From positions 356,500,001 through 356,564,000 of the forward strand of contig OZ024740.1 of assembly GCA_964016885.1 (NCBI GenBank): a DNA stretch of 64,000 bases, given 5' to 3'. Each line of letters starts with the position of its first letter. Positions within the stretch are counted from its first letter, which is position 1. Both the position numbers and the translations under genes were made by a program. Source of the stretch: Eledone cirrhosa. Taxonomy: Eukaryota. This document shows, piece after piece, positions 3,552-29,400 of this stretch. A model generated the notes under the pieces. It was not told the DNA's origin. It did no database searches and was given only the letters and a program-made list of their open reading frames with translations.

Positions 3552-4027
3552 TAAACAGCAACGAATCTAAGGAGGATCTTGAGAAGTTGAAGGAGAAGTA
3601 ATGATCCAACGGACCTTTTCTCCGTTGGCTATGGCTCACTCGTTTGATATATTGTCGGTATAACACCTGCCAGAGCAAAAACGTTACGAATGGTGATGAT
3701 GATGATGATGATGACAACAACAACAATAATAATAATAATAGTAATAATAATAATAATAATAATAATGATTTCTTTATTAACCACAAGGGTTTACATAAAG
3801 TAGACATTAAGGACAGTGCAGGACAATGCAGGACGGTACAAATGGGCATTTCTGCGTGTAAAAAAACAAAAACAGAGGATGTAACAAAAATAACAATGAA
3901 AATAACAATGAAAAATTCCCCAATAGGGGGGAGACTTCGGAGGGACATTTGTGGAGAAAGCCCAGTAAAAAGCCACAATGACCCTGACCACCAAGGCAAG
4001 TGCCCTTCCCAGTTTTCCACCTTTAAT

Positions 4028-7000
4028 TTACAGATATATACTCAGAGTAGGCCCATTCACTCGGGCCATTCTTGCTTCTCTCACCCATCTTTCAACAAAA
4101 TGCTGGGAAGAGAGCACTTCCCTCTCTACTCTGATTTTCCTTTTCAAATGAAATTTGAAAAAGTCAATCAGAGCATCACCGAAGAGGTAAGTGCTCGTCT
4201 TCAGCCCTTTCAAACGTGTCCACCATACTATCTCTTTCACCATGGCCACCAGGCAGATAAAAACTGCCTGCCCTTCCCGGCTAAAGGAGGAGGGCGGGGC
4301 AATCCTCACGATGGACTCAGATGATAGCCGGATCCGTCCTAAACGCGACAGCAGGTGTTCGACATAAACCCACAAGTCAGCAATTTTCGGACACTGGACG
4401 AGTGCGTGCAGGACGGTTTCGTCGCCCTGCGCGCATCTCGGACATGCCCGGCTGACGGCACCTCCATGCCTGTAGAGTTTATCCCGAACTGGCAAGGCTC
4501 CTCGGTAGCACTGCCAGGCCAGAGATTTCTGGAAGTTGTCCATAGGCCCTGGCCCGAAAGTTCTTCCGAAGAGATTGGCTAGTTGATTTTCGTCGACGCC
4601 TAGAGTTTCCCCAAGTACGTCATCGCTCTTCCCCTCCACTAATCCTCTATAGAACGCCGAGGTGGAGTTTCCACCGATCACATTGCCCGATTGGTCGAGG
4701 GCTGTGAGCGCCTGAAGACATTCCAGTCTCCAGGCGCTCCCTCTCGGTCTTCGCTTGACCCAGGACTGCAGCTCCGTCAAGGAAACGAGCTGGGGAAAAA
4801 CGCGTCTAGCAAACGGCGACCACACCTGATCACCGTCGAGGAAGAGGTGGAGATGTCGTAGCCTGAGCGCGTGCCTGCGCATCATCAGCCACGGCATGCC
4901 CAGCCCTCCACGTAGCGGGTGTTGACAACAGATGGACCGCCTGACCATCGGAGCACGTCCCTTCCACAAAAAGCGAAAGAGCAAACGCTCCAGCGCAGTC
5001 AGGCGAGGCTTAGGACAAGGTACGACGGTTAGGCGGTAGCAGATGACAGACGCGATGTACACGTTAGCCACCTCCGCTCGACCTTTCAGGGATAGCTTCC
5101 TCTCCGCCCATTTCTGGGTGAGAGAAGCCACCCTGCTCGTCACCTCGTCCCAGTTTTTGTCCGTCTGGAGGTCCGGACCGAACCAGACCCCTAGCAATTT
5201 AACCGGTCCGTCCGTCCAGCGCCCGACGACGCTGTTGGACGGCATGGACCTGCCTCTCCAGGTGCCGAGCTGCAGGCCCACTGACTTTTCCTGGTTGATC
5301 ATTGCTCCTGTCACCGCTTCGTATTCTCTTAGTGTAGTGCCGATCGCCTCGATGTGTTTGGCGTTCGACACCACTACGGTGACATCGTCCGCATATGCTG
5401 ACACGGATCTTCCGCATCCTAGTTCGCGCGGGACTCCCCTCAACGTCTCCAGTTTGTGCAGTAATGGCTCGAGAGTCAATACGTACAAGAGGGACGAGAG
5501 GGGACATCCTTGGCGGACCGAGCGCATGATGTTGAACGGTTCCGACAGGTGACCGTTCACTCTCACTACAAAGCAGATGTCGCTGTACATGGCAGCGATC
5601 CAGCCTCTGAAGACGGGCCCAAAGCCAGCCGCCCTCAGGACTGCCGCTAGGTAACGATGGTCGACCCTATCGAAAGCTTTCGACTGATCTAAATTGATCA
5701 AGGACCCACCCGTGCCAGGTTCCCTAGCTACCCTCTCTACGATGTATCGCATGAGGTGGAGGTTGTCGTGGATGGATCTGTCGGGAATGGCGCATGTCTG
5801 CGCCTCTCCCACCAGACCACCAACGACAAGCGCCAACCTCTTTGCTAGCACCTTGGCCAAAATCTTAAACTCTGTGTTTAGCAGAGTTATGGGCCGGAAA
5901 TTGTCTATGTTATCCCCCTTGTTCGGATCCTTTCTCAGCAGTGCCACCGCTCCTCGGCTCACAGAACTGGGAATTCTCCCGTTCTGTTGCCAGTTGCAGT
6001 AGACGTCCGCCAAGAGGCCTCCGAACAAGTCTGGCATCTGTACGTAAAGTTCATAGGGCAGACCATCCAAACCAAGCGATTTACCCCTTGTGCAGCCAGT
6101 CATTGCCTCCCGTACTTCAGCGGCTGTTATCGGCTTTTCGCAACACTTCGCCTCAGTGGCCGAGAGCCGCGGCAGTCCGTCGAGGTAGACACTAAAGTCC
6201 ATCCCTCTACCCGGCCCCCCGCTGCCCCCGAACAGCTGAGCGAAGTGTCGCTGAAAAGCTTCACACATTTGCCCGGGATCGAGTAGCATGCGCCCGTCGT
6301 GGTCCACCAAAGACCGGATCGTGGCTTTGTTGCCACGACGCGCCTCCGCCACTCGGGCCCATTGAACGGCTTTCGTCCCCTCGTGTCTGAGAGCACGCAC
6401 CCTAGCTCTGACAACGCAGCCTTCGTGCTTTGCATTGAAGAATTGGTCAAGGGCCAATTTCGCCGCAAGCACGTCGGTCGCAATGCCTTTGCTAAGCGCC
6501 TCGTCTAATTTTCTAACTAGTTCTCCCTCTGCTCTATTTTTCTCTATTGCTAAAGCCTTACTAAACCTAATCGATTCTATTCTAATCGCTCTTTTCAGAG
6601 CAAACCACCACTTGTTGTTGACGATGGCCCCCGTCAACGCCCGCTTAACTAGTTCGCTAATCCGGTCTCTGTAGGCCTTGCGCGCTGGTAAGGACGCGTT
6701 TAGCTTCCAGTAGCCGGGTCCTCGTCTATGAAGCCTATCTAAGTCAAGCACACAGGTCACGAATTTGTGGTCCGTGTAGCTGACTATCTTGAATTGTGGA
6801 CAGCCTATGCTAGACCTATCTATTTCCCTACAAAATACTCTATCTAGATATGATCTGGATGACCCTATGCGGTTTGTCCAAGTCCACATTGGCACATTCG
6901 GGAAATCCAATCGGTACCTGTCAGACAGTTCAAAACGCCTGAGCAGGTTGGTGAGGCTCTTGCACCCTCCACCCCTATCCGCTAATCCCACACAGTCCCA

Positions 7001-7447
7001 GCGTGCATCTAAGATCCCGTTCCAGTCGCCCACTAACACTAAAGAGCGGGACGTTCCAAGAAAGGTCTCCAGACGCCGGAAGAAATCAGACCGCCCTGCT
7101 CCTGTCGGGGCATAGACGGCCACTAGCCTGAAAGCTTGCCCGTCTCCGCTGGTCACGTCCAGCACCACCAGCTTACCCTCTGGGTCCAGGAAGATGGCCC
7201 GTATGGCGAGATCCAAACCTCTCCGAAAAAGCACAGCAACTCATCCACCCGATCCAGGACGGCTGGGAGATGCGTACACATCGTAGCCGCCGAAGATCGG
7301 TGCGAAGGCCCGTGCTTCGGAGATTCTGGTCTCGCTGATGGCCACTACATCTATGTTTAGTGACCTGAGGTCGTTGAGCAGGTGACCCTGCTTCCATGAC
7401 GACCCCAAGCCACGCGCATTTATGCTGCCTATTCTGAGTGAGGTCAT
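4028..7447 (-). pseudogene. Tx1 copy 1 ORF2: APE endonuclease, reverse transcriptase and CCHC finger, with one in-frame TGA at 7241-7243
   Basis: APE motifs SINARGL, AISETR, VYAP, GDWN, SYLDR, TDH. RT motifs FRPITLLN, DQSKAFDRV, QGCPLS, YADD. C-terminal CPRC..H..C. ORFs 7241-7447 and 4028-7234 are one frame joined across GGA-TGA-GTT. Confidence 0.93.
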
Positions 7448-7482
7448 GTTTAAAATAGAGTGGAAAAGATGGGAAAGACCAC

Positions 7483-9579
7483 TTACCGTACTTTTGGTAG
7501 AGGAGGGATGGTTTTTACATCCCTTTTCACTTGATCGTCTGGTGAAGGGACCGTTGAATCGTCCCTTCGGCTGGTCGTCGGCTCTTCTAAGAGAATGTCT
7601 GAATATACTCTTCGATTAATGGTTCCTCCTAGGTCCCTGAAATCACCAACTGCGTTGGGGAATTTCGTTTTAATGTTTGTGTATTGTTTCTGTGCTATTT
7701 TTAGCAGTCTTATGTTAGTTGGCGTTTTGATTGGTGCTGGTATTATGTAGTCCTGTTGTGAAATGTCTGTGTGTTCAATTATGTAAGTCATTAGTTTCTT
7801 GTTGTGTGTGTTTATTGCCGTGCATTTGTTTTTCTGGGGGTGGGGTGTGGTTCTGCTATTTTCTTGTCGTTGTTGCTGGGTGTGTGTGTTTTGTTGTTGT
7901 GTTTGCGATGTTGGTGCTTGTGGTGGTGGTGTTGAAGGTGTTGTTGGCGGTGGGGTTGTCGCCGGTGGTGATGGTGGTGCTGGTGTGGGTGGTGATGGTG
8001 TTGGTGGTGTTGCTGCTGTGGGTCTCTTTGCAGTAGACTTTACCCTTTTCTCATTTCTTTCCTCCCTTTTCAAAGGCGACGATGCGCTGCTTCTGCGTTT
8101 GTGCCTTCTTGCGACCTTTTGCCATCCCTCTCCCACCTCACACTCCATGTCTCATTCTGTAAGGTCGGGGAGGGGTACCAGCTCCACTCTTTCACTTGTT
8201 GTTGTTGGTGATGTTTGCACTGGAGTCTCTGTTGCAGCTGCATTTGGTATTGCTGTTGTTGTTGTTAATATTTCCACTGCTGCTGCTGTCTTTGATTTCC
8301 GTGGAGTGGGTATGGGTGCCACGGACCTATCGTTCCTGGTTGCCGCTTGTCCTGTTGCTGGTAGCCGTGGAGCCGGATTCGGAAGGAGGGGGGTTTTCTC
8401 CTTTCTCAGGGTCTTCTCGTTGCAGAAGGCCCTGAGGTGAGTCTTCGATCCACAGCGAAAGCATTTCGGGCGTTTGCCCTCAACACTTATGGGCAGTTGA
8501 GTGCCGTTATCGAAGTCTATCACATCCGGGATAGCTTCGATGCACTCCTGGTTGGTTTGGATTAGCATCTCAATGGAGGAGCCGACCCAATCTTCTATTA
8601 CTTTTTTCTGTACTTGCAGTACAGTTGTTTTGTCCTCGATTCCGACGAGGACAGACGCGGCCAGCCAAGAAGGGGTCATTCCGGGGGGGACGTGGGTCAG
8701 TTTGACCCTCACAATTTTTTGCCCGCAGTAGGAGGGCACCAACACCATTTCCTCGCTCCTTAGGGTCACTACGGATTGGGCCTTTGCCTCCTGGGGTGTG
8801 GCAAAAAGTACGTCTACGGTGGCGTATTTTTTGCCTCGGGTGATGTGCGTTTTCCTCTGCCACACAGACCCCAAGGCTTTTTGTATTTGGGCCTCTGTGG
8901 CTCTTTCCACCCTACGGGATTTTGTACTTACTGTACGGTACGTGACCGTACAGTGCTCTTGGGTTTCGAACAAATTTTTCGCTGCCTTGCAGATTGCTCG
9001 GTGTCCGTTCTTTGTCACCATCTTCTTCGCTTCCTCTAATTCCTCATTTGTTATGAGGATTGTTTCCAAGTTTTTCGCAATACCTGCAAATGAGATTGGT
9101 TTTTCTCTGCTGTTGTTGTTGTCGTCAGAGCTGCTGGTACTTTTGTTGTTGCTGCAGGTACTACGACTACTGCCTCCGCCGCTGTTGCTGTGGTTGTTGT
9201 TGGTGTTGCTGCTGCTAATGCTGTTGTTGTTTATGCTGCTGGTGATGCTGTTGCGGCTGCTACTGTTGTTTTCATTGTCACTGTTGCTGTTGTTATTACG
9301 GCTGCTACTGCTATTATTCCTGACGTCAGACGAATGAACTGGGTTTTCGTATTTCCCGCACACCTGTTTCGTCGCTGTCGTCGTCGTCGTGGAGAAACCT
9401 TGCACGCTTTGCACGAGACTTTTCTTTTCTTTCGTCGCTTGCGAAAGAGAAGGGAGGGAGAGAGACACATTTAAAGAAGGGAGGGAGAGAGACAATCTTC
9501 TCTCTGCTGTAGTGATGATTGAGGAAGAAGAAGACGGAATGAGTGGGAGTGACGTATGAAATTTCTTTTTGGTAGCCAT
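7483..9579 (-). pseudogene. Tx1 copy 1 ORF1 (gag-like nucleic-acid-binding protein), with a stop at 8152-8154
   Basis: MATKK start, zinc knuckle CFRCGSKTHLRAFC (CX2CX4HX4C), and Ser/Asn and Pro/Thr low-complexity tracts. The TGA here is TCA (Ser) in copy 2. Confidence 0.85.
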
Positions 9580-10677
9580 GTTTTTTTGTTTAAAATGAAA
9601 TTTTGGGTACAAAACCCCAATAACTGGTTATTTAACCCCGAAGGGCCAAATAACGGACAGAAAGACCCCTCTCACGAGGAGGAGGGTGTCTTTATCAACA
9701 ATTTGGTTCAAGTTTTAAACAATTTACAATTGTTTTAACGGTTAAAAATTACTATACCTTACAGAGCCGAGCCTCCGTCAACCATGGCATTCAATAATAA
9801 TAATAATAATAATAAACATAATAAAGAAGACGCACGAGGTGGTAGAAGGTCATGAAATCGCTCCCGTAAGTTTTGAATTTTTAACATATTTAAATCATTT
9901 GTGAAATAACAACTCTTAGTACAAATGTTACGTAAAGCATCCGGCTTGAGCCCCCAAAAAATTCGGACCCAAAATATATTGTTATAAGGCTCAAATATTC
10001 AAATATTCAACTTTGTATTGTACATTGTATATTCAAAAAAGAAAATGGCTATAAATGGAAGAAGAAGAACCCCCTCCTCTGTCTACACTATATAGAACAG
10101 CCAAACAACACCAATCTCACCAACACCAGAAACTAGATACACCACCTATCCAATAACCTCTCTGTGTACACTAAACACAACAGCCAGATAACGGCAACTT
10201 CACCACCACCACAACCAATCCCAACATAATAATGATAATAATAAATACTATTATTATTGTCCCAAGTTTTAACAAAATGTTTAATTCCAACATTAAGGGA
10301 ATTTATGTCAACACATGTACGCGACTAACCCCATAGATTCACCGAACGGACACCAGTAACGACAACGCCACCCATCCATCATTACTACCACTATCCCATC
10401 ACCGCCGCCACCACTCCTTCATTGCTACCACCGCTACAACACCATCACTACAGTAATACGATCACATCACCACCACCACTGCCTCAGTATCGACATCACC
10501 ACCACCACTGTCTCAGTATCGCTACCGCCGCTATTCTCTCCCATTGCTTCCTGCTAGTTGCTGCTAGCACAGCAGCAACACCACATTAAAGAATTCCTAC
10601 TAAAAAAGAGGAAGGCATCAAAATATATAGATAGACTCAAAAGAAAAAAACAAAAATCAAAACCAAAGCAGCACAGC

Positions 10678-10712
<35 letters not shown>

Positions 10713-10919
10713 AAAAAAAAACAAACAGAGAAAAGCAAAAACAAAACAAAACGTAAAGAAAATAAGAATGAAGAGAGAAACAAGCGGACGGACAGAGAAG
10801 AGAAGGGAAAAACTAAGTCAGACATTCGAACACTACATTACAATGAAACTTATGCTTATTCATTTTGGGGGGTTTTTCTGCCTGTTTGTTTGTTTGTTTA
10901 TTTGTGTTCGTCTACAGCG

Positions 10920-13900
10920 TGGTGATAATGCCACACAAGAGCCAAGTGGAGTGACGCAACCACCGGAGACGGTGAATCCACAGATGGTTATGTAACCATA
11001 CATTCGCCAATCCTCGATAAGAGTGTTTAAATATCGAACCTAAACAGTTCGAATAACGGTGAAATGGAGACTAGAACGTCATGTGACAGACTCTCACCCA
11101 ACAGGTGCTCCCTGGCTCAGCAGCAGGAACCTGGCTGTCAACCAAATACTGCTGGTGTCGGGGGAAGAAGAAGAAGGAAAGGGACCAGAACCAACTGGAT
11201 GAAAGAATTGAATAGAACTGTTATGCAATGTTACCTGAAAAGTAACCCCAAGGAGAGGGGCTATAGGAGACGAATGCATAACATCTGGAACGAGATTGGT
11301 CTATTTAAATTAGATGAACAAAAATTGGTCGGGCAGGCTCGGGTAATAAGAACTAATGGGTGGATAAGCGAGCTGGAACTGGAGGAACTGAGCAGAGAGA
11401 TTAGCTTGGAGATGGAGGGTGGAGTATGCCAGGCAAACGAGCCAGTGGGAAATGAAGGTGAAGAGGTCGAGAGAACGGAGGAACCACCCGAAGCAGACAA
11501 TGATCTGAATACTGAGATAAATAATACCTGGAACAGAGATACGGCCACTGAGGAGATGAATGCTGACGGGCTAGGACAAGATTCGGTTGACATCCTAAAT
11601 TTAGTGGTGGATGAATTGAACAATGATAGTGAGAGACCTATGAACCTAAGATTTGTAGACAGGAAAAAGTTAAAAGAAACAACAGCTAAGGTAAACAAAG
11701 TCATCCCATACCTTGAGGCGAGGAGCCTTCACCAGTGCAACAATATCCTCAAAGCAACAGCAAATACGGTGAGGAAACTACTTGGTATAAAAGCGAGAGG
11801 AAACAACAGACAAGAAAGAGCAGAGCCTTGGTGGAAGAAATGACTGAGTGGTCAAATCAGGGAAATGAGAAATGACATTGGAAAGCTTGAGTCACTACTG
11901 AATGGGACACTAAAAAACATAGGCACTAAAAATAGACTGGAAATAAAGTACAAAACTAGGAGGAAAAAGCTAAATATTATCATAGAGGAACTGAAGCAAC
12001 GCATTGTAGCAAAGAGTGCAAAAATCAGGCGATACGAGAACAGAGTCAGTCAGTATAAACAGAACCGCATGTTCGACAACAACCAGAAGATGCTGTTTGG
12101 ACAGCTTGAGGGGAAAGAAAGAGGCAACGACTTGATCCCTGAGGCGGAACAAACTAAAACATTCTGGAGAGGAATATGGGAGCAGGATGTTAGACATAAT
12201 GACCAGGCAGGGTGGATTGAGACAGTACAGAGGGAGATCGGTGAGCAGGCACACCAACAAACTGATTTGAGTATCACAGTTGAAACTCTTAAGGGGCAGG
12301 CCAAAAAACTAACCAACTGGAAATCACCAGGCTCAGATGGTGTGCAGGGGTATTGGATTAAAAATATAACATCCCTCCACCCGAAACTGACAACCATGTT
12401 CAATGACTGCTTGATGTCAGGTGAGGTACCAGAGTGGTTGACAAAAGGTACCACAGTTCTGATAATGAAAGACCGAATCAAGGGTAATGATGTTACCAAC
12501 TATAGACCTATCACATGTCTGTCCGTAATGTGGAAACTGTTGACGAGCATTGTGTCTGAGGAAATCTACCATCACCTCCACACAAACAACTTGTTACCGG
12601 ACGAACAGAAATGATGCCGAAAGAAGTCACGTGGTACAAAGGACCAGTTACTTATTGATAAGATGGTAATGGGGAATTGCAGGAGGAGACACACTGATCT
12701 TGCCATGGGATGGATAGACTACAGAAAGGAATTTGACATGGTGCCTCATTCTTGGATCACCAAAAGCCTGGAGATCTTCAAGGTGGCAGATAACATCAGA
12801 CAGTTGTTGGGCAGGAGTATGAGGTCCTGGGAAATAGAGTTAACATCAACTGGAGAATCCTTGGGAAGCGTGAAGATCAAGAGAGGTATCTTCCAGGGAG
12901 ATAGCCTGTCCCCTCTGTTGTTTGTCCTTGCCCTGATGCCCCTGACCAGTGTACTGCGAAAAGTGAGAGCAGGATACGGGTTGGGAAAGGGAGGGCTTAC
13001 CATCAATCACCTCCTCTTCATGGACGATGTTAAGCTCTTCGGGAAGAGTGAGAAGGAGTTGGATGTGCTTGTTGACACTGTCCGTATTTTCAGCAGTGAT
13101 ATATGTATGCAGTTTGGTATTAGTAAGTGTGGAGTCATTGTGATGAGGAGGGGTAGGCTGAGCAGAAGTAACGGAATCCAGATATCAACAGGTGAGATGA
13201 TAAAGGAAATTGACTCTGAGGAAGGATACAAGTATTTGGGCGTTCTGGAGGCTGATGCCATAAAGAGCAAAAAAATGAAGGAATTGTTAAGAAATGAATA
13301 CATTCGGAGAGTAAGGAGGGTATTGAAGTCACATCTGAGCAGCAGAAATGCCATAAGCGCAGTAAATTCCCGAGCTGTGTCTATTATTAGGTACAGTGGG
13401 GGAATTCTGAGATGGAATGTTGCTGAACAAAAAGAAATGGATAGGAAGACTAGGAAGCTATTGACTATCTACAACATGTTCCACAAGAGGAGTGATGTCG
13501 ATAGACTCTACTTAAGGAGATCTGAGGGTGGAAGAGGTCTTATCAGCATAGAGGACTGTGTTCAGATGGAGAAAAACAACCTACACAAATACGTGACTGA
13601 TAGTAAGGAGCCAATGCTAAGAACTGTACTGAAGGAGGGGACAATAGGCCAGGGGATGTCCAAGGAAGAAATAACATCAAGGAGAAAGAGCAGCCTTCAG
13701 GAAAAATCCCTTCATAGTACCTTCTTTGAGAAAACTGAATTTAAAGATCCACAGACATGGAACTGGTTGAGAAGAGGAGACCTTAAAAAGGCTACAGAAG
13801 GAATGTTAATGGCTGCGCAGGAGCAGGCCCTCAAAACGAAGTTGTTGAAACACCATATTCACAAGGAGGAGGCTAGCCCACTGTGCAGGATCTGTGGAGA

Positions 13901-14533
13901 GAGAGAGGAGACTGTGGCTCACATTGTATCCGAGTGTAAACACCTAGCCCAGACCCACTATAAGGGCTGGAGACATGATGTGATGGACAGCGTGATCCAC
14001 TGGCACCTGTGCAAAGTAAACAATTTACCACATTCTGAGTAGTGGTATGAGCATAAGCCAGAGGCGGTGATGGAGAACGATCAGGTGAAGGTGCTGTGGG
14101 ATTTTAGGATACAGACGGACAAGAAACTGGAACACAATAGACCTGACCTGGTGGTTGTGGACAAAGAAAAAATATCGTGTCTGATTGTGGATGTGGCCTG
14201 CCCATTCGACACGAGAGTGCAAGAGAAGGAGAGGGAGAAAATTAACCGATACCAGGACTTAAAGTGGGAGGTAAAAAGGATTTGGAACTGCCATGAAGTC
14301 AAAGTGATCCCGATTGTCATAGGCGCACTGGGGACTATCTCCAAAAGTTTCCAGGGATGGTTAAAGAAAATCGGCCCCTTCACGCTTTTTGGAACGCTTC
14401 AAAAGGCATGCCTAGCTGGGAACAGCAAGAAACCTCCGATACGTCCTGAATATCTGAGGCTGCAGGTAGTGGCTTGATATTCATTCCAACGGACTTTCCA
14501 GTTAACTAACATCAATGACTGAGATTCAAGGAA

Positions 14534-14574
<41 letters not shown>
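10920..14574 (+). mobile_element. R4/Dong-like RLE non-LTR retrotransposon, family A, near full length (5' end approximate)
   Basis: A single long decayed ORF, a short 3' UTR and a (TAA)n tail at 14535-14574. Confidence 0.88.
11064..14457 (+). pseudogene. Dong-like family A polyprotein (RT, CCHC, restriction-like endonuclease), decayed
   Basis: N-terminal WMKELN..MQCY motif; [31 protein letters not shown]; CRIC..H..C, RHD, RPDLVVVD..IVDVACP, KINRY. Stops at 11841, 12612 and 14040 and a frameshift near 14411. Confidence 0.9.
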
Positions 14575-14576
<2 letters not shown>

Positions 14577-15277
14577 CAAAACGAAGTGGTTGAAGCACCA
14601 TATCTACAAGAAGGAGGCTAGCCCACTGTGCAGGATCTGTGGAGAGAGAGAGAAGACTGTGGCTCACATTGTGTCCGAGTGTAAACACCTAGCCCAGACC
14701 CACTATAAGGGCTGGAGACACGATGTGATAGGCAGGGTGATCCACTGGCACCTGTGCAAAGTAAACAATTTACCACATTCTGAGAAATGTTATGAGCATA
14801 GGCCAGAGGCGGTGATGGAGAACAATCAGGTGAAGGTGCTGTGGGATTTTAGGATACAGACGGACAAAAAACTGGAACACAATAGACCTGACCTGGTGGT
14901 TGTGGACAAAGAAAAAAGATCGTGTCTGATTGTGGATGTGGCCTGCCCGTTCGACACGAGAGTGCAAGAGAAGGAGAGGGAGAAAATTAACCGATACCAG
15001 GACTTAAAGTGGGAGGTAAAAAGGATTTGGAACTGCCATGAAGTCAAAGTGATCCCGATTGTCATAGGCGCACTGGGGACTATCTCCAAAAGTTTCCAGG
15101 GATGGTTAAAGAAAATCGGCCCCTTCACGCTTTTTGGAACGCTTCAAAAGGCATGCTAGCTGGGAACAGCAAGAAACCTCCGATACGTCCTGAATATCTG
15201 AGGCTGCAGGTAGTGGCTTGATATTCATTCCAACGGACTTTCCAGTTAACTAACATCAATGACTTAGATTCAAGGAA

Positions 15278-16575: not shown

Positions 16576-19500
16576 TTACAGATATATGCTCAGAGTAGGC
16601 CCATTCACTCGGGCCATTCTTGCTTCTCTCACGCATCTTTCAACAAAATTCTGGGAAGAGAGCACTTCCCTCTCTACTCTGATTTTCCTTTTCAAATGAA
16701 ATTTGAAAAAGTCAATCAGAGCATCACCGAAGAGGTAAGTGCTCGTCTTCAGCCCTTTCAAACGTGTCCACCATACTATCTCTTTCGCCATGGCCACCAG
16801 ACAGATAAAAACTGCCTGCCCTTCCCGGCTAAAGGAGGAGGGCGGGGCAATCCTCACGATGGACTCAGATGATAGCCGGATCCGTCCTAAACGCGACAGC
16901 AGGTGTTCGACATAAACCCACAAGTCAGCAATTTTCGGACACTGGACGAGTGCGTGCAGGACGGTTTCGTCGCCCTGCACGCATCTCGGACATGCCCGGC
17001 TGACGGCACCTCCATGCCTGTAGAGTTTATCCCGAACTGGCAAGGCTCCTCGGTACCACTGCCAGGCCAGATATTTCTGGAAGTTGTCCATAGGCCCTGG
17101 CCCGAAAGTGCTTCCGAAGAGATTGGCTAGTTGATTTTCGTCGACGCCTAGAGTTTCCCCAAGTACGTCGTCGCTCTTCCCCTCCACTAATCCTCTATAG
17201 AACGCCGAGGTGGAGTTTCCACCGATCACATTGTCCGATTGGTCGAGGGCTGTGAGCGCCTGAAGACATTCCAGTCTCCAGGCGCTCCCTCTCGGTCTTC
17301 GCTTGACCCAGGACTGCAGCTCCGTCAAGGAAACGAGCTGGGAAAATACGTGTCTAGCAAACGGCAACCACACCTGATCACCGTCGAGGAAGAGGTGCAG
17401 ATGTCGTAGCCTGAGCGCGTGCCTGCGCATCATCATCCACGGCATGCCCAGCCCTCCACGTAGCGGGTGTTGACAACAGATGGACCGCCTGACCATCGGA
17501 GCACGTCCCTTCCACAAAAAGCGAAAGAGCAAACGCTCCAGCGCAGTCAGGCGAGGCTTAGGACAAGGTAAGACGGTCAGGCGGTAGCAGATGACAGACG
17601 CGATGTACGTGTTAGCCACCTCCGCTCGACCTTTCAGGGATAGCTTCCTCTCCGCCCATTTCTGGGTGAGAGAAGCCACCCTGCTCGTCACCTCGTCCCA
17701 GTTTTTGTCCGTCTGGAGGTCCGGACCGAACCAGACCCCTAGCAATTTAACCGGTCCGTCCGTCCAGCGTCCGACGACGCTGTTGGACGGCATGGACCTG
17801 CCTCTCCAGGTGCCGAGCTGCAGGCCCACTGACTTTTCCTGGTTGATCATTGCTCCTGTCACCGCTTCGTATTCTCTTAGTGTAGTGCCGATCGCCTCGA
17901 TGTGTTTGGCGTTCGACACCACTACGGTGACATCGTCCGCATATGCTGACACGGATCTTCCGCATCCTAGTTCGCGCGGGACTCCCCTCAACGTCTCCAG
18001 TTTGTGCAGTAATGGCTCGAGAGTCAATACGTACAAGAGGGACGAGAGGGGACATCCTTGGCGGACCGAGCGCATGATGTTGAACGGTTCCGACAGGTGA
18101 CCGTTCACTCTCACCACAGAGCAGATGTCACTGTGCATGGCAGCGATCCAGCCTCTGAAGACGGGCCCAAAGCCAGCCTCCCTCAGGACTGCCGCTAGGT
18201 AACGATGGTCGACCCTATCGAGAGCTTTTGACTGATCTAAATTGATCAAGGACCCACCCGTGCCAGGTTCCTTAGCTACCCTCTCTATGATGTATCGCAT
18301 GAGGTGGAGGTTGTCGTGGATGGATCTGTCGGGAATGGCGCATGTCTGCGCCTCTCCCACCAGACCACCAACGACAAGCGCCAACCTCTTTGCTAGAACC
18401 TTGGCCAAAATCTTGAACTCTGTGTTTAGCAGAGTTATGGGCCGGAAATTATCTATGTTATCCCCCTTGTTCGGATCCTTTCTCAGCAGTGCCCCCGCTC
18501 CTCGGCTCACAGAACTGGGAATTCTCCCGTTCTGTTGCCAGTTGCAGTAGACGTCTGCCAAGAGGCCTCCGAACAAGTCTGGCATCTGTACGTAAAGTTC
18601 ATAGGGCAGACCATCCAAACCAGGCGATTTACCCCTTGTGCAGCCAGTCATTGCCTCCCTTACTTCAGCGGCTGTTATCGGCTTTTCGCAACACCTCGCC
18701 TCAGTGGCCGAGAGCCGCGGCAGTCCGTCGAGGTAGACACTAAAGTCAATCCCTCTACCCGGCCCACCGCTGCCCCCGAACAGCTGAGCGAAGTGTCGCT
18801 GAAAAGCTTCACACATTTGCCCGGGATCGAGTAGCATGCGCCCGTCGTGGTCCACCAAAGACCGGATCGTGGCTTTGTTGCCACGACGCGCCTCCGCCAC
18901 TCGGGCCCATTGAACGGCTTTCGTCCCCTCGTGTCTGAGAGCACGCACCCTTGCTCTGACAACGCAGCCTTCGTGCTTTACATTGAAGAATTGGTCAAGG
19001 GCCAATTTCGCCGCAAGCACGTCGGTCGCAATGCCTTTGCTAAGCGCCTCGTCTAATTTTCTAACTAATTCTCCCTCTGCTATATTTTTCTCTATTGCTA
19101 AAGCCTTACTAAACCTAATCGATTCTATTCTAATCGCTTTTTTCAGAGCAAACCACCACTTGTTGTTGACGATGGCCCCCGTCAACGCCCGCTTAACTAG
19201 TTCGCTAATCCGGTCTCTGTAGGCCTTGCGCGCTGGTAAGGACGCGTTTAGCTTCCAGTAGCCGGGTCCTCGTCTATGAAGCCTATCTAAGTCAAGCACA
19301 CAGATCACGAATTTGTGGTCCGTGTAGCTGACTATCTTGAATTGTGGACAGCCTATGCCAGACCTATCTATTTCCCTACAAAATACTCTATCTAGATATG
19401 ATCTGGATGACCCTATGCGATTTGTCCAAGTCCACATTGGCACATTCGGGAAATCCAATCGGTACCTGTCAGACAGTTCAAAACGCCTGAGCAGGTTGGT

Positions 19501-19995
19501 GAGGCTCTTGCACCCTCCACCCCTATCCGCTAATCCCACACAGTCCCAGCGTGCATCTAAGATCCCGTTCCAGTCGCCCACTAACACTAAAGAGCGGGAC
19601 GTTCCAAGAAAGGTCTCCAGACACCGGAAGAAATCAGGCTGCCCTGCTCCTGTCGGGGCATAGACGGCCACTAGCCTGAAAGCTTGCCCGTCTCCGCTGG
19701 TCACGTCCAGCACCACCAGCTTACCCTCTGGGTCCAGGAAGATGGCCCGTATGGCGAGATCCAAACCTCTCCGAAAAAGCACAGCAACTCATCCACCCGA
19801 TCCAGGACGGCTGGGAGATGCGTACACATCGTAGCCGCCGAAGATCGGTGCGAAGGCCCGTGCTTCGGAGATTCTGGTCTCGCTGATGGCCACTACATCT
19901 ATGTTTAGTGACCTGAGGTCGTTGAGCAGATGACCCTGCTTCCATGACGACCCCAAGCCACGCGCATTTATGCTGCCTATTCTAAGTGAGGTCAT
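16576..19995 (-). pseudogene. Tx1 copy 2 ORF2 (APE-RT-CCHC), with an in-frame TGA at 19789-19791
   Basis: Same motifs as copy 1. About 30 amino-acid differences in 1068 by my count, with no frameshift. Confidence 0.93.
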
Positions 19996-20030
19996 GTTTA
20001 AAATAGAGTGGAAAAGATGGGAAAGACCAC

Positions 20031-22124
20031 TTACCGTACTTTTGGTAGAGGAGGGATGGTTTTTACATCCCTTTTCACTTGATCGTCTGGTGAAGGGACC
20101 GTTGAATCGTCCCTTCGGCTGGTCGTCGGCTCTTCTAAGAGAATGTCTGAATATACTCTTCGATTGATGGTTCCTCCTAGGTCCCTGAAATCACCAACTG
20201 CGTTGGGGAATTTCGTTTTAATGTTTGTGTATTGTTTCTGTGCTATTTTTAGCAGTCTTATGTGAGTTGGCGTTTTGATTGGTGCTGGTATTATGTAGTC
20301 CTGTTGTGAAATGTCTGTGTGTTCAATTATGTAAGTCATTAGTTTCTTGTTGTGTGTATTTATTGCCGTGCATTTGTTTTTCTGGGGGTGGGGTGTGGTT
20401 CTGCTATTTTCTTGTCGTTGTTACTGGGTGTGTGTGTTTTGTTGTGTTTGCGATGTTGGTGCTTGTGGCGGTGGTGTTGAAGGTGTTGTTGGCGGTGGGG
20501 TTGTCGCCGGTGGTGATGGTGGTGCTAGTGTGGGTGGTGATGGTGTTGGTGGTGTTGCTGCTGTGGGTCTCTTTGCAGTAGACTTTACCCTTTTCTCATT
20601 TCTTTCCTCCCTTTTCAAAGGCGACGATGCGCTGCTTCTGCGTTTGTGCCTTCTTACGACCTTTTGCCATCCCTCTCCCACCTCACACTCCATGTCTGAT
20701 TCTGTGAGGTCGGGGAGGGGTACCAGCTCCACTCTATCACTTGTTGTTGTTGGTGATGTTTGCACTGGAGTCTCTGTTGCAGCTGCATTTGGTATTGCTG
20801 TTGTTGTTGTTAATATTTCCACTGCTGCTGCTGTTTTTGATTTCCGTGGCGTGGGTATGGATGCCACGGACCTATCGTTCCTGGTTGCCGCTTGTCCTGT
20901 TGCTGGTAGCCGTGGAGCCGGATTCGGAAGGAGGGGGGTTTTCTCCTTTCTCAGGGTCTTCTCGTTGCAGAAGGCCCTGAGGTGAGTCTTCGATCCACAG
21001 CGAAAGCATTTCGGGCGTTTGCCCTCAACACTTATGGGCAGTTGAGTGCCGTTATCGAAGTCTATCACATCCGGGATAGCTTCGATGCACTCCTGGTTGG
21101 TTTGGATTAGCATCTCAATGGAGGTGCCGACCCAATCTTCTCTTACTTTTTTCTGTACTTGCAGTACAGTTGTTTTGTCCTCGATTCCGACGAGGACAGA
21201 CGCGGCCAGCCAAGAAGGGGCCATTCCGGGGGGGACGTGGGTCAGTTTGACCCTCACAATTTTTTGCCCGCAGTAGGAGGGCACCAACACCATTTCCTCG
21301 CTCCTTAGGGTCACTACGGATTGGGCCTTTGCCTCCTGGGCTGTGGCAAAAAGCACGTCCACGGTGGCATATTTTTTGCCTCGGGTGATGTGCGTTTTCC
21401 GCTTCCACACAGACCCCAAGGCTTTTTGTATTTGGGCCTCTGTGGCTCTTTCCACCCTACGGGATTTTGTACTTACTGTACGGTACGTGACCGTACAGTG
21501 CTGTTGGGTTTCGAAAAATGTTTCCGCTGCCTTGCAGATTGCTCGGTGTCCATTCTTTGTCACCATCTTCTTCGCTTCCTCTAATTCCTCATTTGTTATG
21601 AGGATTGTTTCCAAGTTTTTCGCAATACCTGCAAATGAGATTGGTTTTTCTATGCTGCTGTTGTTGTTGTTGTCGTCAGAGCTGCTGTTACTTTTGTTGT
21701 TGCTGCAGGTACTACGACTACTGCCTTCGCCGCTGTTGCTGTGGTTGTTGTTGCTGCTGCTAATGCTGTTGTTGTTTATGCTGCTGGTGATGCTGTTGCG
21801 GCTGCTACTGTTGTTTTCATTGTCACTGTTGCTGTTGTTATTACGGCTGCTACTGCTATTATTCCTGACGTCAGACGAATGAACTGGGTTTTCGTATTTC
21901 CCGCACACCTGTTTCGTCGCTGTCGTCGTCGTCGTGGAGAAACCTTGCACGCTTTGCACGAGACTTTTCTTTTCTTTCGTCGCTTGCGAAAGAGAAGGGA
22001 GAGAGAGAGACACATTTAAAGAAGGGAGGGAGAGAGACAATCTTCTCTCTGCTGTAGTGATGATTGAGGAAAAAGAAGACGGAATGAGTGGGAGTGACCT
22101 ATGCAAATTCTTTTTCGTAGCCAT
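20031..22124 (-). pseudogene. Tx1 copy 2 ORF1 (gag knuckle), with a stop at 20421-20423
   Basis: Contains CFRCGSKTHLRAFC. The TAA here is CAA in copy 1, and the frame continues to ...PPLPKVR*. Confidence 0.85.
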
Positions 22125-23299
22125 GTTGTTTTTTTGTTAAAAATAAATATTGGGTACAAAACCCCAATAAGCAGTTATTTAACCCCGAAGGGCCAAATAA
22201 CGGGCAGAAAGACCCCTCTCGCGAGGAGGAGGGTGTTTTTGTCTACAAGTTGGTCTAAGTTTTAAACAATTTACAATTGTTAAAGCGTTCAAAATTTACA
22301 GTACCTTACAGAGCCAAGCCTCCGTCAACCATGGCATTCAATAATAATAATAATAATAATAAGGGGAAGAAGACGCACGAGGTGGTAGAACGTCACGAAA
22401 TTGCTCCCGTAAGTTTTTTGATTTTTAACATATTTAAATCAATTGTGAAAGAACAATTCTTAGCACAAATGTTGCATAAAGGCACCGAATGAGGTCCCAT
22501 AAAGTTTCGGATCCATATTATATTGTTGTATCGCTCAAATATTCAATTTTGTATTATATATTTTGTATTCAAAAAAAGAAAATGGTTATAAATGGAACAA
22601 AACACCCTCTGTCTACATTATATAGAACAGCGGCAATTTCAATTTCACCAACACCAGAAACTTGATACACTACCTATCCCATCACACTAAATATAACAGC
22701 CAGATAACGGCAATTTCACCGGCATCATAATAATAATTACTATTATTATTGTCTCAAATTTTAAAAAATGTTTAATTCAAATTTTACGGGAATATGTCAA
22801 CACAAAATATAATGAAAATATATATTAAACATACGAACACAAACTCATAGATACTATATCAGTAACCACAACACGACCGCTGCCACCACCCCACCACATC
22901 CATCATCGCCGCCACCACTCATTCAATGCTACTGACACTATTCCCCTGTTAACTTGAGAGAGAAAAGGGAAGGTGGCGGTAGCACTAGACAAGAGAGAGG
23001 CTAGCAAAAGATATAAATAGATTGACTTGGTGACCTTGCCACGGCCAAACGTCTACATCCACAATTATGGGACTGCTGGCTCACCCCTTCCTCACCAACA
23101 ATATAAAAAGCCCCGGCACCACCACCGACATAGCCAGCAGCAATAACAGCCAACTACAACAAAAAGTATATTATATTATTGTAATGCACTGGGTGATTGC
23201 TGGCCTTGTGCCTGGAGTGGAGACAATTATTAATAATTTCATTCTTAAGCCACGCAATGCTCACATTAAGGAACCACTCATGATAATAACAATTTAAAA

Positions 23300-26200
23300 A
23301 AAAACAACAAAAAGAAAACCCCGTGACCAAGAAATACCGGGATGGCGGCCGGCGAGGAATAGCCATGTCTCTAGGGGAGAACGACCCCTCTAGTCTTGGT
23401 TGACACTCGTTCTAGAAGTGGTAACACGAAATGATTACCCCTTGGCGGATAAGGATAAAACGCGACAAAATAAAGTAAATGTCTAATGATAAAATCTCAT
23501 ACAGGATCGGCCGTCACCCGGGTAAAAAAGGGCCGCGTCCCTCAGAGAGGAACCAGACTGGGGTCGAAAAATCAGCTAATGGTTCAAACCTTCCCATCAC
23601 TTCGGAGCTGGAGACCTGCCATAATCGGAATACTCCTACTGTTGGCCCTCCATGCTCACCACCAAGAAATCCAAAGAAAAAGAGAGAAAATGGTCAAGGG
23701 AAGATAATAAAGAAGTCCTTGAGGCTTTCTACACTGCCATGTACTACCCATCAAATACATCGAATACAGAACAAACATATATCAACTGGAAAAAGAAACA
23801 TCCCGAAAACAGAGGCTATATTGACAGTAACAAACTAGCCAATATACGAAGAAATATTGTAAGAAAAAAGTTACTAACTGATATAGAAATTGATCAGATC
23901 AAGCTAGTAGCACAAAGTCAGCGAAGGGAAAATGAAGCATGTGTCAGTGAAAACGAGGTAAACTGTAACACTTCGAATCCCAGGGTTAGGGCGGAATCAC
24001 TGGCAACAGAACAAATTAAAGAAAGGAGCGAAAAAGTGGAGGGAGTGCATGCTCAGGATGAAACTCCAAATGAAAATAATGAGATCGTAAATGATAAAGA
24101 AATGAATGAGAATGAACTTGCCAACTTGAAGGATCAAATTATGATCGAATGGATGAAAATGAAAGAATCTGACATGGGGCAACGAGACACCCTCCCTAAG
24201 ATCCAGAACTCCAAACAGAACCAAAAGATAATACACAAGACTAACATAATTCTCAAAAACATTATCATCACAAACAAACTAAACATTACTGACTTAAATC
24301 ATCTCTATTATGCATCGGCTAAAGTCACCACTCACTTATGTGGAGTGAAGATGAAAAAACAAAGGAATTCCCACAAGAAATCTACTTGGCAAGAGAACAT
24401 CAATCGCCAAATAAACCTTCTCTGATCTGACATAGAAATTTTAACAAACTATAAAGTAGGTGAACATGTTAAACAAACTAAACTTAGAAAATTGAAAAAA
24501 AAGTACAGTATAAGATCAACATGTGACATAGACATGCTGATAGAAACAATCAAGCAAAAAGTGTCGGCCAAAGCTGCTCGTATAAGGCGCTTTGAAAAAC
24601 GATCTAGATTCTATAAGGACAATAATATGTTCAAAAACAACCAAAGAAACTTCTACAGAAAAATTGGTAAGTCAACAATAACTGCTAAATCAATACCACC
24701 CAAGGAGGAAGTGCAAGAATTCTGGGAAAAGATCTGGGCCGAAGAAAAAGTTCATGACATACATGCCCCATGGATAGACAGACAAATGAAAGAAACAGCT
24801 CACCTTGAAGAACAAACATGGGAAAATATAACAGTTGAACAGCTGCGCTTGGCTCTAAGAAAAACCAGCAAATGGAAATCCCCAGGAAAAGACAAAATAC
24901 AAAACTTTTGGATAAATGCCTTCACAGAGTCTCATGAGCTGTTAGCCCAACTTTACAATGAAATAGTTAAGGAGCCAGAAAAGATACCATCATGGCTAGT
25001 TAACGGCATTACATTCCTGCTACCGAAGAATGATGAGACAAACAATCACAAAAATTACAGACCGATAACCTGCTTGACCACAATGTATAAAATTTTAACA
25101 TCAGTCCTAACTGAATACACATATGACCACCTGATAACAAATGACCTATTTCCCATTGAGCAGAAAGGGTGTAAACGAGGCTCATATGGCTGTAAGGATC
25201 AGCTTCTGGTTAACAAAATGATACTGGAAGATTGTCATAATAGACACAAAAATCTATCGATTGCTTGGATAAATTATAAAAAAGCATTCGATAGTTTGCC
25301 ACAGAGTTGGATTGAAAAATGTTTAGAGATTTTCAAAATATCCCCCGTTGTCAGGAGGTTTTTGTCATTCAGTATGAGGACATGGAGAACGACACTCCTT
25401 TTGAATAGTGAAACAAAATCACTGGAAGCTGAAGTTAATATTAATTGTGGAATTTTTCAGGGTGACTCTTTATCACCGCTTTTATTCTGCATGGCACTTA
25501 TACCATTAAGTAAAATGCTCAATGAAACAAAACATGGATATAGAGTCTATGACAAAACCATTAATCACTTGTTCTACATGGATGACCTGAAACTATTTAA
25601 AGATTCTTAATCATGCACAGAATGCATCACCCTAAGGCAGACATAGATAGAATATATCTCCCTAGGAAAGAAGGAGGACGTGGGTTAATCCAGTTAGACA
25701 TTGCGTTGAAAACTGCAACAATTGGATTATCCACATATCTAAGGGAATCACATGATTGGATGATCAAACTCGTTTTGAAACACGAAAGCACCAAAAGATC
25801 ATATTCCATCACAAAAGATGCACAAAGATACAGTAATGGACTACAAATTTCAGAAGTCCCATTTACTGCTGAAATGGAAAACACAGAAAAAGCAAAGCAG
25901 GTAAAAGTAACTGCAAAGAAAGAACTGCTACAGAAACTGGCTAAGAAATGGCAAGAAAAGCCTCTGTATGGAAAATACCCAGAGCGAGCTAACAATCCTG
26001 ATGTTGACAAAACTTTAACCCATCAGTGGTTGGCATCCTCTGGACTGAAATCGGAGACTGAAGGACTGATTATATCGGCACAAGATCAGTGTCTGCCAAC
26101 AAAAAATTACCAAGCCAACATAATAAAAAATGGGTGCAGCCCATTATGCCGTGTATGCAAAAAACAACCAGAGATCATTGACCATATAATTTCAATGTGC

Positions 26201-26853
26201 AGTCCTATAGCTCCAACCGAATACCTAAACAGGCATGACAGAGCTGCACAATACATACATTGGATAATGTGTAAGCATTTTGACCTGCCCCATCAAAAGA
26301 ATTGGTGGGAGCATCAACCACCTCCCATACTTGAAAAAGATCACATCTCAATCTTGTGGAACTTTAGCATCCAAACAGACCGAAAAATAGATGCAAATAG
26401 ACCTGATATAATATTGAAGGACTTTCAAAGGAGGGTATGCCTGCTAATTGATATGTCTGTTCCAATAGACAAGAATGTATCTATAAAAACATTTGAAAAA
26501 TTGAGCAAGTATAAGGACCTGGAGATAGAAATTGGAAAAATGTGGAAATTGAGAACTAAAACAATACCAGCGGTTGTAGGCGCTCTGGGAATGATACCTA
26601 AGGGGTCTAACGACTACTTATCGCAAATCCCAGGAAACCCGCGTATAGGAGAAATACAAAAGATAGTACTAATGGGAACTGCCCATATACTAAGGAAGAT
26701 TCTGTCAATATAAGTACATCACAAGTCTAAACACTAAAGATGCATGTGTGAATATGTATGTTCTTTCTTGAACATGGCGGACCTTGTTGTCTCTTGAGGT
26801 CACTGGTTGTGACTTGGTGATAACTCGTATAAACATAAAGCAAGATAAATTCA

Positions 26854-26887
<34 letters not shown>
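23300..26887 (+). mobile_element. R4/Dong-like RLE retrotransposon, family B, internally deleted (5' end approximate)
   Basis: ORF pieces 23479-26713 with WSREDN..FY, KWKSPGKD, YRPITCL, QGDSLSP, FYMDD, CRVC..H..C, RHD and RPDIILKD..LIDMSVP. Frameshift near 23670, TGA at 24423, deletion near 25600, (TAA)n tail at 26854-26887. Confidence 0.88.
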
Positions 26888-28303
26888 GTTGTCAGAATTT
26901 TTTGTCATTCAGTATGAAGACATGGATAACGACACACCTTTTGAATAGTGAAACAAAATCACTGGAAGCTGGAGAAGTTAATATTAAGTGTGGAATTTTT
27001 CAGGGTGACTCTTTATCACCGCTTTTATTCTGCATCGCACTTATACCATTAAGTAAAATGCTCAATGAAACAAAACATGGATATAAAGTCTATGACAAAA
27101 CCATTAATCACTTGTTCTACATGGATGACCTGAAACTATTTGCAAAAAATGATGAACAATTGCAAGGGCTATTATCCACTGTGAAGCAGTTCAGTGATGA
27201 CATTAAAATGGAGTTTGGACTAGATAAATGCGCCAAAGCAACGTTCACCAGAGGAAAGCTGCTGAAGAGTTCAGACATTAATCTTGATCGGGGGAACGTG
27301 ATAAGAGAACTTGATCAAGAAAAAATTTACAAATATCTAGGTGTTTGTGAAGGAGACGGAATCAAGCACTCGACAATGAGGGAAAGGATAAGGAAGGAAT
27401 GTTACCGCAGAGTGAGAGCAATCTTAAAAACGGAATTGAATGCAAGGAATAGGATCGATGCCATAAACACGCTTGCCATACCAGTAGTAACCTACAGTTA
27501 CAATGTCATCAACTGGTCAAGCACAGAGGTCCGTAGGCTCGATACAAAAATTCGAAAATTCTTAACCATTCACAGAATGCATCACCCTAAAGCAGATATA
27601 GATAGAATATATCTCCCTAGGAAAGAAGGAGGACGTGTGTTAATCCAGTTAGATATTGCGTTGAAAACTGCAAAAATTGGATTATCTACATATCTAAGGG
27701 AATCACATGATTGGATGATCAAACTCGTTTTGAACCACGAAAGCATCAAAAGATTATACTCCATTACAAAAGATGCACAAAGATACAGTAATGGACTACA
27801 AATTTCAGAAGTCCCATTTACTGCTGAAATGGAAAACACAAAAAAAGCAAAGCAGGTAAAAGTAACTGCAAAGAAAGAACTGCTACAGAAACTGGCTAAG
27901 AAATGGCAAGAAAAGCCTCTGTATGGAAAATACCCAGAAAGAGCTAACAATCCTGATGTTGACAAAACTTTAACCCATCAGTGGTTGGCATCCTCTGGAC
28001 TGAAATCGGAGACTGAAGGACTGATTATATCAGCACAAGATCAGTGTCTGCCAACAAAAAATTACCAAGCCAACATAATAAAAAATGGATGCAGTCCATT
28101 ATGCCGTGTATGTAAAAAACAACCAGAGACCATTGATCAGATAATTTCAATGTGCAGTCCTATAGCTCCAACCGAATACCTAAACAGGCATGACAGAGCT
28201 GCACAATACATACATTGGATAATGTGTAAGCATTTTGACACCTCCCATACTTGAAAAAGATCACGTCTCAATCTTGTGGAACTTTAACATCCAAACAGAC
28301 CGA
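26888..28303 (+). mobile_element. 5'- and 3'-truncated copy of Dong-like B (RT core to CCHC)
   Basis: ORF 26902-28254 with QGDSLSP, YMDD, YKYLG and RHD. It begins directly after the TAA tail of the first copy. Confidence 0.88.
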
Positions 28304-28304
28304 G

Positions 28305-28755
28305 GCTGACATCAAGAAAAACATTACAGACAGTACAGGACGGTACAGGACGGTACGATGTGGGTTTTGTGCATGTAAAGTTTTTTATTATTTATATAAG
28401 AAAAGAAAAAATAAAGACATAGAAACATATATATATATCTAAACAATAAAAATGAAAATTGAAACAATGAAAAATTCCCCAATAGGGGGGAAACCTCCGA
28501 GGGTTACTCGTGGCGAAAACCACACAAAAGACCACGTCCACCCTGACCACCAGGGCAAGCGCCCTCTCACAATTTTTCAATTTCTCAAACTACAGGCGTA
28601 TATTCACAGCGGTCCCGTTCACTCGGACCATTCTCGCTACATTCACCCACCTTTCAACAAAGTTGCTAGAAGGCAGCACTTGCCTCTCCACCCTGATTTT
28701 CCTCTTCAAGTGAAACTTGAAAAAGTTAATTAGGGATTCGCCGAAATGGAAAGGT
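28305..28755 (-). mobile_element. 3' fragment of a second Tx1 subfamily
   Basis: Homologous to 3800-4185 (end of ORF2 and 3' UTR, including aatgaaaaattccccaatagggggg) but clearly diverged. Confidence 0.8.
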
Positions 28756-28769
28756 AAAGGCCTTTTGGA

Positions 28770-29400
28770 TTTAAGCCCCGATCCTTACCGATACTGCCGA
28801 CATATAAGGGACAATGTAATAGATGGGGACAGTAGGGGTTTTACACAAAAATTGAGGAAAAATTAGGAAAAAAATAACAATAAACACGTAAAAATACAAC
28901 AATGAAAATTCCCCAATGGGGGGATAACCACCCACGGTTGACTCAGATACCTCACCAATCCTGAACCACCCGACGCTTTAGGGCACCTGGGAAGGGCACC
29001 TCTCTCCCCAACTTCACCAGCCTACAGGCGCTTTTCACACGGCCTTTCTCGCCACATTCACCCACATTTCAGCAAATGTACTGGGGGAGGGGGTTAGCAT
29101 TTCTCTCTCTAAGCTCAACTTCCTTTCCAAGTGGTTTTTCCATTTTATTCACGGTCCATTTTGTTCGTATCAACACAAGACAAATGGCTGAATCTGCTGT
29201 TTGGCGCCAAGCACCGACTCTATTTTGCATGGTGAGAAGAGACTTCGTTTTTCGGTGCCCCACCTCGGTGGATTCTGGTGCTGATTGTAGTAGGGTAATT
29301 TTGTTTATATCTGTTTCTGTTTTGGCCTTCCTCGGACAGGCAACGGCAGCCGCAGCCATGATATGCACCCCATCCCATCACTTGTAGTTCAAGGCATACT
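28770..29400 (-). mobile_element. 3' fragment of a third, more diverged Tx1 subfamily
   Basis: 3' UTR motif aatgaaaattccccaatgggggg at 28901-28923 and residual similarity to the ORF2 C-terminus (AICLV...). Confidence 0.6.

Follow-up and report, generated by a model that had tools for sequence, protein, structure and literature searches.

The stretch analysed here, 64,000 nt of the genome of Eledone cirrhosa (contig OZ024740.1, positions 356,500,001 to 356,564,000; hereafter the window), holds a cluster of long interspersed elements (LINEs) set in (TAA)n repeats, which read (ATT)n on the other strand. The assembly from which it comes, of 3.0 Gb, was used for all genome-wide counts. Two classes of LINE meet in this hub: Dong-like elements (families Dong A and Dong B), with a restriction-like endonuclease (RLE), and elements that we call TxA, TxB, TxC and TxD, with an endonuclease of the apurinic type (APE). 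We consider it probable that TxA, TxB and TxD insert into (ATT)n in one direction and Dong in the other, the former by a strand-preferring APE aided by annealing of the element's RNA. The broader proposition is that the APE independently evolved recognition of the (AAT)n strand, that APE and RLE elements split the strands between them and jointly build thousands of self-extending, polarity-ordered arrays, and that this arrangement is undescribed; for this we see the chances as evenly balanced.

Orientation and target of the insertions

Orientation was counted over 442 distinct pure runs of at least 5 units in the sampled loci, a count that is conditional on a run being present and so tests orientation, not specificity. 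Wherever the 5' end of a Tx element touched a pure run, the run read ATT (144/144; 125 heads and 19 truncated ends), and wherever that of a Dong element did so it read AAT (135/135; 34 heads and 101 truncated ends). The opposite orientation claimed in the original prediction therefore holds, with none of 279 such ends wrongly oriented. Five discordant rows were found, all on 3' sides: three are a piece of a short interspersed element (SINE) lying inside the Dong B reference, and the other two are a Dong tail beside a strand-flipping run and an internal break.

A genome-wide pattern search with the exact 37-base tail of TxA gave 3270 occurrences, and with its exact 27-base head 2350, of which 2282 (97%) are directly preceded by TTATTATT. 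PMC4494074 regards a family as target-specific if over 20% of its flanks share a type of target; the corresponding figure for TxA is 97% of 2350 heads. From the first 88 tails in the list for one contig, C1, we then took 80, a sample not chosen by similarity; the 8 omitted were one already sampled, five array members, one in a stretch already covered and one other. All 43 full-length heads in this sample followed at least 3 units of ATT, none followed TAA (0/43), and three ATT units came after 76 of the 80 tails. The remaining 37 copies comprise 10 of TxD, 2 variants and 25 truncated TxA; a TxD head could be located in 4 of the 10, and ATT preceded it in all four. The run has a median of 8 units on the 5' side (43 full-length heads) and, for pure runs, of 12 on the 3' side. 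Furthermore, three different Tx heads, whose N-terminal part of open reading frame (ORF) 2 has 82-97% protein identity to TxA, all follow ATT. On the Dong side, 24 of 24 heads follow an AAT run, one of them with (GAA)n between.

Across the repeat from the 80 tails lay an inverted Dong in 25 cases, a same-strand Tx in 20, a SINE in 10 and unrecognised sequence in 25; across from the 43 heads the corresponding numbers were 20, 15, 1 and 7. Neither a same-strand Dong nor an opposite-strand Tx was found among the neighbours of the 80 sampled TxA copies.

Several TxA copies lie inside the 3' untranslated region (UTR) of an RTE-like LINE, a label that comes from reading its translation. Among 30 paralogues of this UTR the ATT-rich tract was uninterrupted in 25, held an inverted Dong A in two and a 28-bp TxA end in one, and was unclear in two. 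The 28-bp insertion at locus L342 consists of the 3' hairpin and terminal bases only, and is flanked by a 20-bp target duplication. In further paralogues the tract was occupied by TxA, either complete, as a piece of 158 bp or in arrays, or by an inverted Dong A. Since the empty paralogues carry the tract, the repeat is older than the insertions, and it serves both classes, which face opposite ways in it. These empty sites, together with short truncated copies that lie in ATT with target duplications, bear out ATT as a target and not merely an encoded tail.

Target duplications and growth of arrays

Target duplications were judged where the target is imperfect, and near-pure ATT rows were left uncounted. 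Those that flank truncated copies measured 11, 14 and 20 bp, and a scan of 87 full copies gave further ones, of 30-51 bp, in three arrays. They start exactly at the element's last base, where its 3' end meets the repeat, with ATT or, in three cases, GTT, so that no added tail is required; several Tx 3' ends in fact join the target without an added ATT unit. The idea that each tail regenerates a target thus survives in part: the target is regenerated, but mainly by target-site duplication.

One large array, on C1, has ten units, one 3'-truncated and nine full TxA, separated by spacers that copy the upstream flank over 51, 36 or 30 bp. The nine full copies are 5-84 substitutions apart and fall in four groups, some of them nearest to dispersed copies, and the 3'-most copy is the most diverged. 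Because mixed lineages are thus interleaved with dispersed copies and the 3'-most unit is the most diverged, this array has likely grown by serial insertion into a regenerated upstream target.

In the same contig (L277/L278, about 441.14 Mb) a TxA unit is cut at position 2117 and followed by the 51-bp spacer of the full copies, a pattern such as internal priming would give.

Several observations weigh against a strict specificity or limit how far the above can be taken. At the 5' junction of truncated TxA, at least 4 units of ATT were present in only 10 of 25 copies. Of the other 15, six have no ATT and continue into an inverted Dong body, three stand in (ACT)n or (CTT)n, TxA is the neighbour in two and an earlier tail in one, and three are unexplained. 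The run is kept in 8 of 10 copies under 300 bp and in 2 of 15 longer ones. The background is 0.35%, this being the share of positions in 30,000-64,000 of the window that fall, on a given strand, inside or at most 8 bases away from an ATT run with 4 units or more. As these copies often have internal deletions, we infer that the long exceptions lost the junction in the same way. Outside the 80-tail sample, two very short pieces (L174 and L228) have no ATT on the 5' side, and several truncated copies among 30 TxB loci lack a 5' ATT as well. In the window itself, two of the four Tx pieces have no TAA junction, and the three junctions at the right end of the hub (28306, about 28780 and about 29133) are not (TAA)n. 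Should AUU units be present upstream in the RNA, the 97% at heads may be an overestimate. Contigs of four public runs covering 3340-4300 skipped the repeats and none bridged the junction, so that they gave no allelic empty site and were uninformative. As regards the arrays, the tree of array and dispersed copies was read without support values, and an identical tandem pair, L284/L285, which stands elsewhere than the ten-unit array, points to local duplication or an assembly error at that pair. Taken as observed, the ATT specificity of Tx is strong, not absolute, and is relaxed in truncated copies.

Coding capacity and identity of the elements

Intact TxA ORF2 matches the Pfam families Exo_endo_phos (3e-14), RVT_1 (1e-28) and zf-RVT (7e-8), and its best solved-structure match is LINE-1 ORF2 (E 6e-46, residues 4-785), the match to R2 reaching only 8e-21. 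Of 62 near-full-length copies, 35 have an intact ORF2 of 1139 aa, and comparison with nine homologues shows the residues of its APE motifs to be conserved. A family-wide dead endonuclease was considered and rejected, as a stop in the APE domain occurs in only 3 of the 62 copies. Two of these are the copies in the window, which are not sisters and carry an identical TGA (7241-7243 in copy 1, the equivalent position in copy 2); the third is one further copy among the 62. Local gene conversion or a mutable site could account for this shared stop.

TxA ORF1 had no significant Pfam match, and a CCHC pattern is visible in its sequence. Its look-alikes in the Atlas (0.90-0.93) carry zf-CCHC, a ZCCHC3-type RBD or RRM, which we take as a lead only; ORF1 proteins of the L1 group and Tx1 clade have RNA-binding domains and a CCHC knuckle. 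Homologue searches with the Tx proteins returned no named animal Tx1 reference; they gave a named homologue from Argonauta hians at 69% and one distant fungal match named TX1 (26%). The search with the APE domain gave two matches only, and a single-sequence fold of that domain was poor (mean pLDDT 36.8) and was not used. TxA, TxB and TxD form a young, high-copy set of APE-type LINEs of the L1 group, likely of the Tx1 clade.

TxD equals TxA in ORF2 and 3' UTR (96%) from element position 2262, with a different head and an ORF1 of about 52% protein identity in its core; it was found at L194, L205, L212, L248 and six more loci, and its structure suggests a swap of ORF1. Two TxB-tailed copies with a TxA-type head were also seen (L310 and L313).

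The 3' ends of TxA, TxB, TxC and of a SINE carry a hairpin with one and the same 5-base loop, followed by ATT, and the stems have family-specific sequences in which pairing is kept. This suggests a 3'-end recognition signal shared by the SINE and the Tx families. Insertions of the SINE, however, lie at short ATTATT sites and are flanked by duplications of about 12-16 bp, so that another LINE may serve as the SINE's partner.

As to the Dong-like pieces, RVT_1 is present and no APE family was found with Pfam; the Dong A protein has solved-structure matches to R2 only. After the reverse transcriptase (RT), in the single ORF, we read by eye from the translation motifs that we take to be CCHC and a PD..D-type RLE. 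None of the 120 Dong homologues among the matches listed (48-69%) has a family name. The ORFs of Dong A and Dong B share 34-35% protein identity, and yet their 5' UTRs have a common head, 81% identical over about 330 bp (9815-10420 and 22363-22940 in the window), which suggests a promoter swap; this head gave 2336 first-look candidates genome-wide. An Rfam scan of 9400-11100, for which no custom model was built, found no ribozyme match at the TxA or Dong A head.

Possible mechanism and alternative explanations

Under target-primed reverse transcription, which is established, the primer for a Tx element reading ATT can only come from the (AAT)n strand, and that for Dong from the (TTA)n strand. 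We propose that the APE likely nicks the (AAT)n strand, where RNA ending in AUU would prime, and that the Dong RLE likely nicks the (TTA)n strand, where RNA ending in UAA would do so. The nick would fall at a T-A step, and both endonuclease specificity and annealing of the RNA to the primer would contribute. As each insertion leaves a repeat on either side, one target becomes two, and later insertions of Tx, Dong and SINE likely reuse these repeats. The resulting hubs would show Tx-Tx and Dong-Dong pairs head to tail and Tx-Dong pairs head to head or tail to tail, some junctions being likely eroded by later deletions. The original prediction of a Tx1 element converged on the Dong repeat by way of the other strand is therefore supported as regards orientation and the use of ATT as a target, while Tx1 membership and the choice of strand by the endonuclease go no further than inference.

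A strand-preferring APE is not the only way to obtain this polarity. The endonuclease could be loosely specific, and the AUU end of the RNA, by pairing with nicked (AAT)n primers, could determine where and in which direction the element inserts. Duplications whose first bases, next to the 3' end of the element, are ATT or GTT, the 3'-truncated array unit that joins the same spacer as the full copies, the copies in (ACT)n or (CTT)n, and the use of short ATTATT sites by a SINE with a similar hairpin would all fit, and annealing is known to help priming in SART1 (PMC7265360). Nevertheless, full-length heads follow long runs (the median of 8 units given above) while the SINE uses short sites; tail-like target sequence rarely flanks repeat-tailed Bov-B LINEs (PMC13295347), and in TRAS1/SART1 a swap of endonuclease changed the target (PMC7265360). 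We favour a strand-preferring APE over annealing alone because ORF2 is intact in 35 of 62 copies, the stop seen in the window occurs in only 3 and the APE motif residues are conserved, and we regard annealing alone as unlikely. That Tx exploits the nicks by which the Dong RLE opens the second strand, and would thereby be forced into the opposite orientation, seems to us very unlikely: the stop inside the APE domain of both window copies speaks for it, as does the inverted Dong found directly beside 20 of the 43 full-length heads and 25 of the 80 tails, but the same low number of APE stops and high number of intact ORF2 speak against it, as do TxA copies in the ATT of SINE tails and in RTE-like 3' UTRs without an adjacent Dong.

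It is scarcely credible, and already largely refuted by the tract in empty paralogues, that the RNA carries ATT at both ends and inserts otherwise at random, the hubs being tolerated or low-recombination DNA. The near invariance of ATT at heads and the 15 of 25 truncated copies without a long 5' run would agree with such RNA; at least 4 units of ATT on the 5' side of 8 of 10 copies below 300 bp, against a background of 0.35%, would not, and among 18 new loci with both ends a library repeat continued across the element in none. There is, finally, a very slight chance that the arrays arose mainly by unequal crossing-over, tandem duplication or assembly error instead of serial insertion. The identical pair L284/L285, the pair L274/L275 with 5 substitutions between its members and the recurrence of identical 51-bp spacers in the large array are what such processes would produce, but array members come from several lineages, some nearest dispersed copies, the spacers have three lengths (51, 36 and 30 bp), no private state is common to the two window TxA copies, and orientation would be left unexplained.

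Layout of the window

Mapping piece by piece agreed with the ten LINE pieces of about five families that had been proposed: five families were found, with all six Dong-like RLE pieces on the + strand and all four L1/Tx1-like APE pieces on the - strand. The eight (TAA)n runs that had been listed are all present and stand at 8 of the 11 junctions of LINE pieces, although those at 3725-3766 and 16021-16056 are imperfect. To the right, 30,000-64,000 contains only two AAT runs of 5 units.

From the left, the hub is preceded by the SINE-like repeat with an ATT tail (3345-3552, + strand), whose 3' hairpin has the 5-base loop of the Tx families. The run at 3725-3766 adjoins the 3' end of TxA copy 1, a full-length element of 6026 bp (3767-9792, - strand) with ORF1 at 9579-7486, interrupted by one stop, and ORF2 at 7447-4031, which encodes APE, RT and zinc finger and contains the TGA mentioned above. 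Its head meets that of Dong A across the run 9793-9814. This Dong A is full length (9815-14534, + strand), with a 5' UTR to about 11030 and a single ORF (11031-14477) that has three in-frame stops and carries RT and the CCHC and PD..D-type RLE motifs. It is followed, on the same strand, by (TAA)13 (14535-14574), a 5'-truncated Dong A (14575-15278), (TAA)12 (15279-15315), another 5'-truncated Dong A (15316-16020), the run at 16021-16056 and a short, 5'-truncated Dong A (16057-16303). The last of these stands tail to tail, across (TAA)8 (16304-16327), with TxA copy 2 (16328-22339, - strand), full length at 6012 bp, whose head faces that of Dong B across (TAA)7 (22340-22362). Dong B with its 5' UTR (22363-26853, + strand) contains part of a SINE (23181-23232) and has an internal deletion near 25598; (TAA)11 (26854-26887) separates it from a 5'-truncated Dong B (26888-28306, + strand), which has lost its 3' end where TxB joins. 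The TxB piece (28307-28775, - strand) consists of the end of ORF2 and the 3' UTR, its terminal bases and ATT run being lost. A TxC-like 3' UTR piece (28796-29133, - strand), 75-80% identical to copies elsewhere, has lost its terminal bases at a SINE-like remnant. The hub had been drawn as far as 29400; its last piece ends near 29133.

A segmental duplication of the two TxA copies was considered and rejected, since the flank common to both (9815-10420 and 22363-22940) is the Dong 5' UTR; the lack of a private state common to the two copies contradicts it as well.

Elsewhere in the window, two frames at 31597-32930 (- strand) read as the end of an RT and a GIY-YIG-type endonuclease, about 82% similar to a stretch in L296; they had no Pfam match and presumably belong to a Penelope-like element. 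Long inverted repeats at 52349-54494 (623 bp, 96%), 59839-61519 (355 bp, 88%) and 34079-35116 (263 bp, 88%) could be ends of non-autonomous DNA transposons.

Relation to known systems

Each ingredient of the arrangement has a precedent: target-specific Tx1, TAA-specific Dong, convergence of APE and RLE elements, and opposite orientation. Tx1 families including Kibi, Koshi and crocodilian ones target (TC)n, (TTC)n, (TTCC)n or (TTTC)n (PMC4494074, PMC3812793); like TxA they are APE-type LINEs in microsatellites, whereas the TxA target, (ATT)n, is AT-rich and shared with an RLE element. Dong inserts in (TAA)n in most insects, molluscs and cnidarians (PMC7998251, PMC3812793), and Bombyx mori Dong, DongAg, DongBg and Darwinula Dong1/2, of the R4 clade, have like Dong A and Dong B a single ORF with RT and RLE in (TAA)n, with nothing essential that differs. 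A divergent N-terminal Myb/SANT-like domain has been described in R4/Dong (PMC7998251), and a ribozyme like that of hepatitis delta virus at the 5' end of Bombyx Dong (PMC3774820). In Octopus vulgaris, Dong-R4 and L1-Tx1 are listed as recently active (PMC13282606, 2026); the word 'target' is absent from the main text of that paper, and 'Tx1' from PMC9115989, as far as their available portions go.

Keno (Tx1, APE) and Utopia (RLE) converge on one site in the U2 snRNA gene with identical 3' flanks (PMC4640811), a convergence of APE and RLE on one target as for Tx and Dong here. Because those 3' flanks are identical the two elements face the same way, whereas here the target is a dispersed microsatellite, the orientation is opposite and the copies number thousands.

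TRAS1 and SART1, of the R1 clade, both have APE endonucleases of one clade. Like Tx and Dong here, they insert in opposite directions in one tandem repeat, the endonuclease setting the target and RNA annealing helping priming (PMC7265360). Their repeat is the telomeric (TTAGG)n, while in the present case the strands are split between two classes of enzyme. In the portions of the literature searched, no Tx1 specific for ATT or TAA was found; Repbase, Kojima and Fujiwara 2004, and Figure 3 and the supplements of PMC4494074 lie outside that search and could list one. Nor was an ATT-specific Tx1 found in the available parts of PMC3747384, PMC13295347, PMC4758252, PMC3774820, PMC9004415 and PMC5753468. 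Within these bounds there is no published match for ATT as target of an APE LINE or for the partition of strands between enzyme classes.

The analysis extends the range of targets known for APE-type LINEs to (ATT)n, and supplies an example of APE and RLE elements that converge, with opposite polarity, on a microsatellite. It also offers a clean system in which to separate the endonuclease's choice of strand from annealing of the RNA tail, because there are many intact natural copies and a three-base repeat has a T-A step on both strands. For annotation, it means that ATT/TAA microsatellite markers in such genomes sit in insertion hubs, and it provides a possible cause for the hotspots of transposable elements in octopod genomes.

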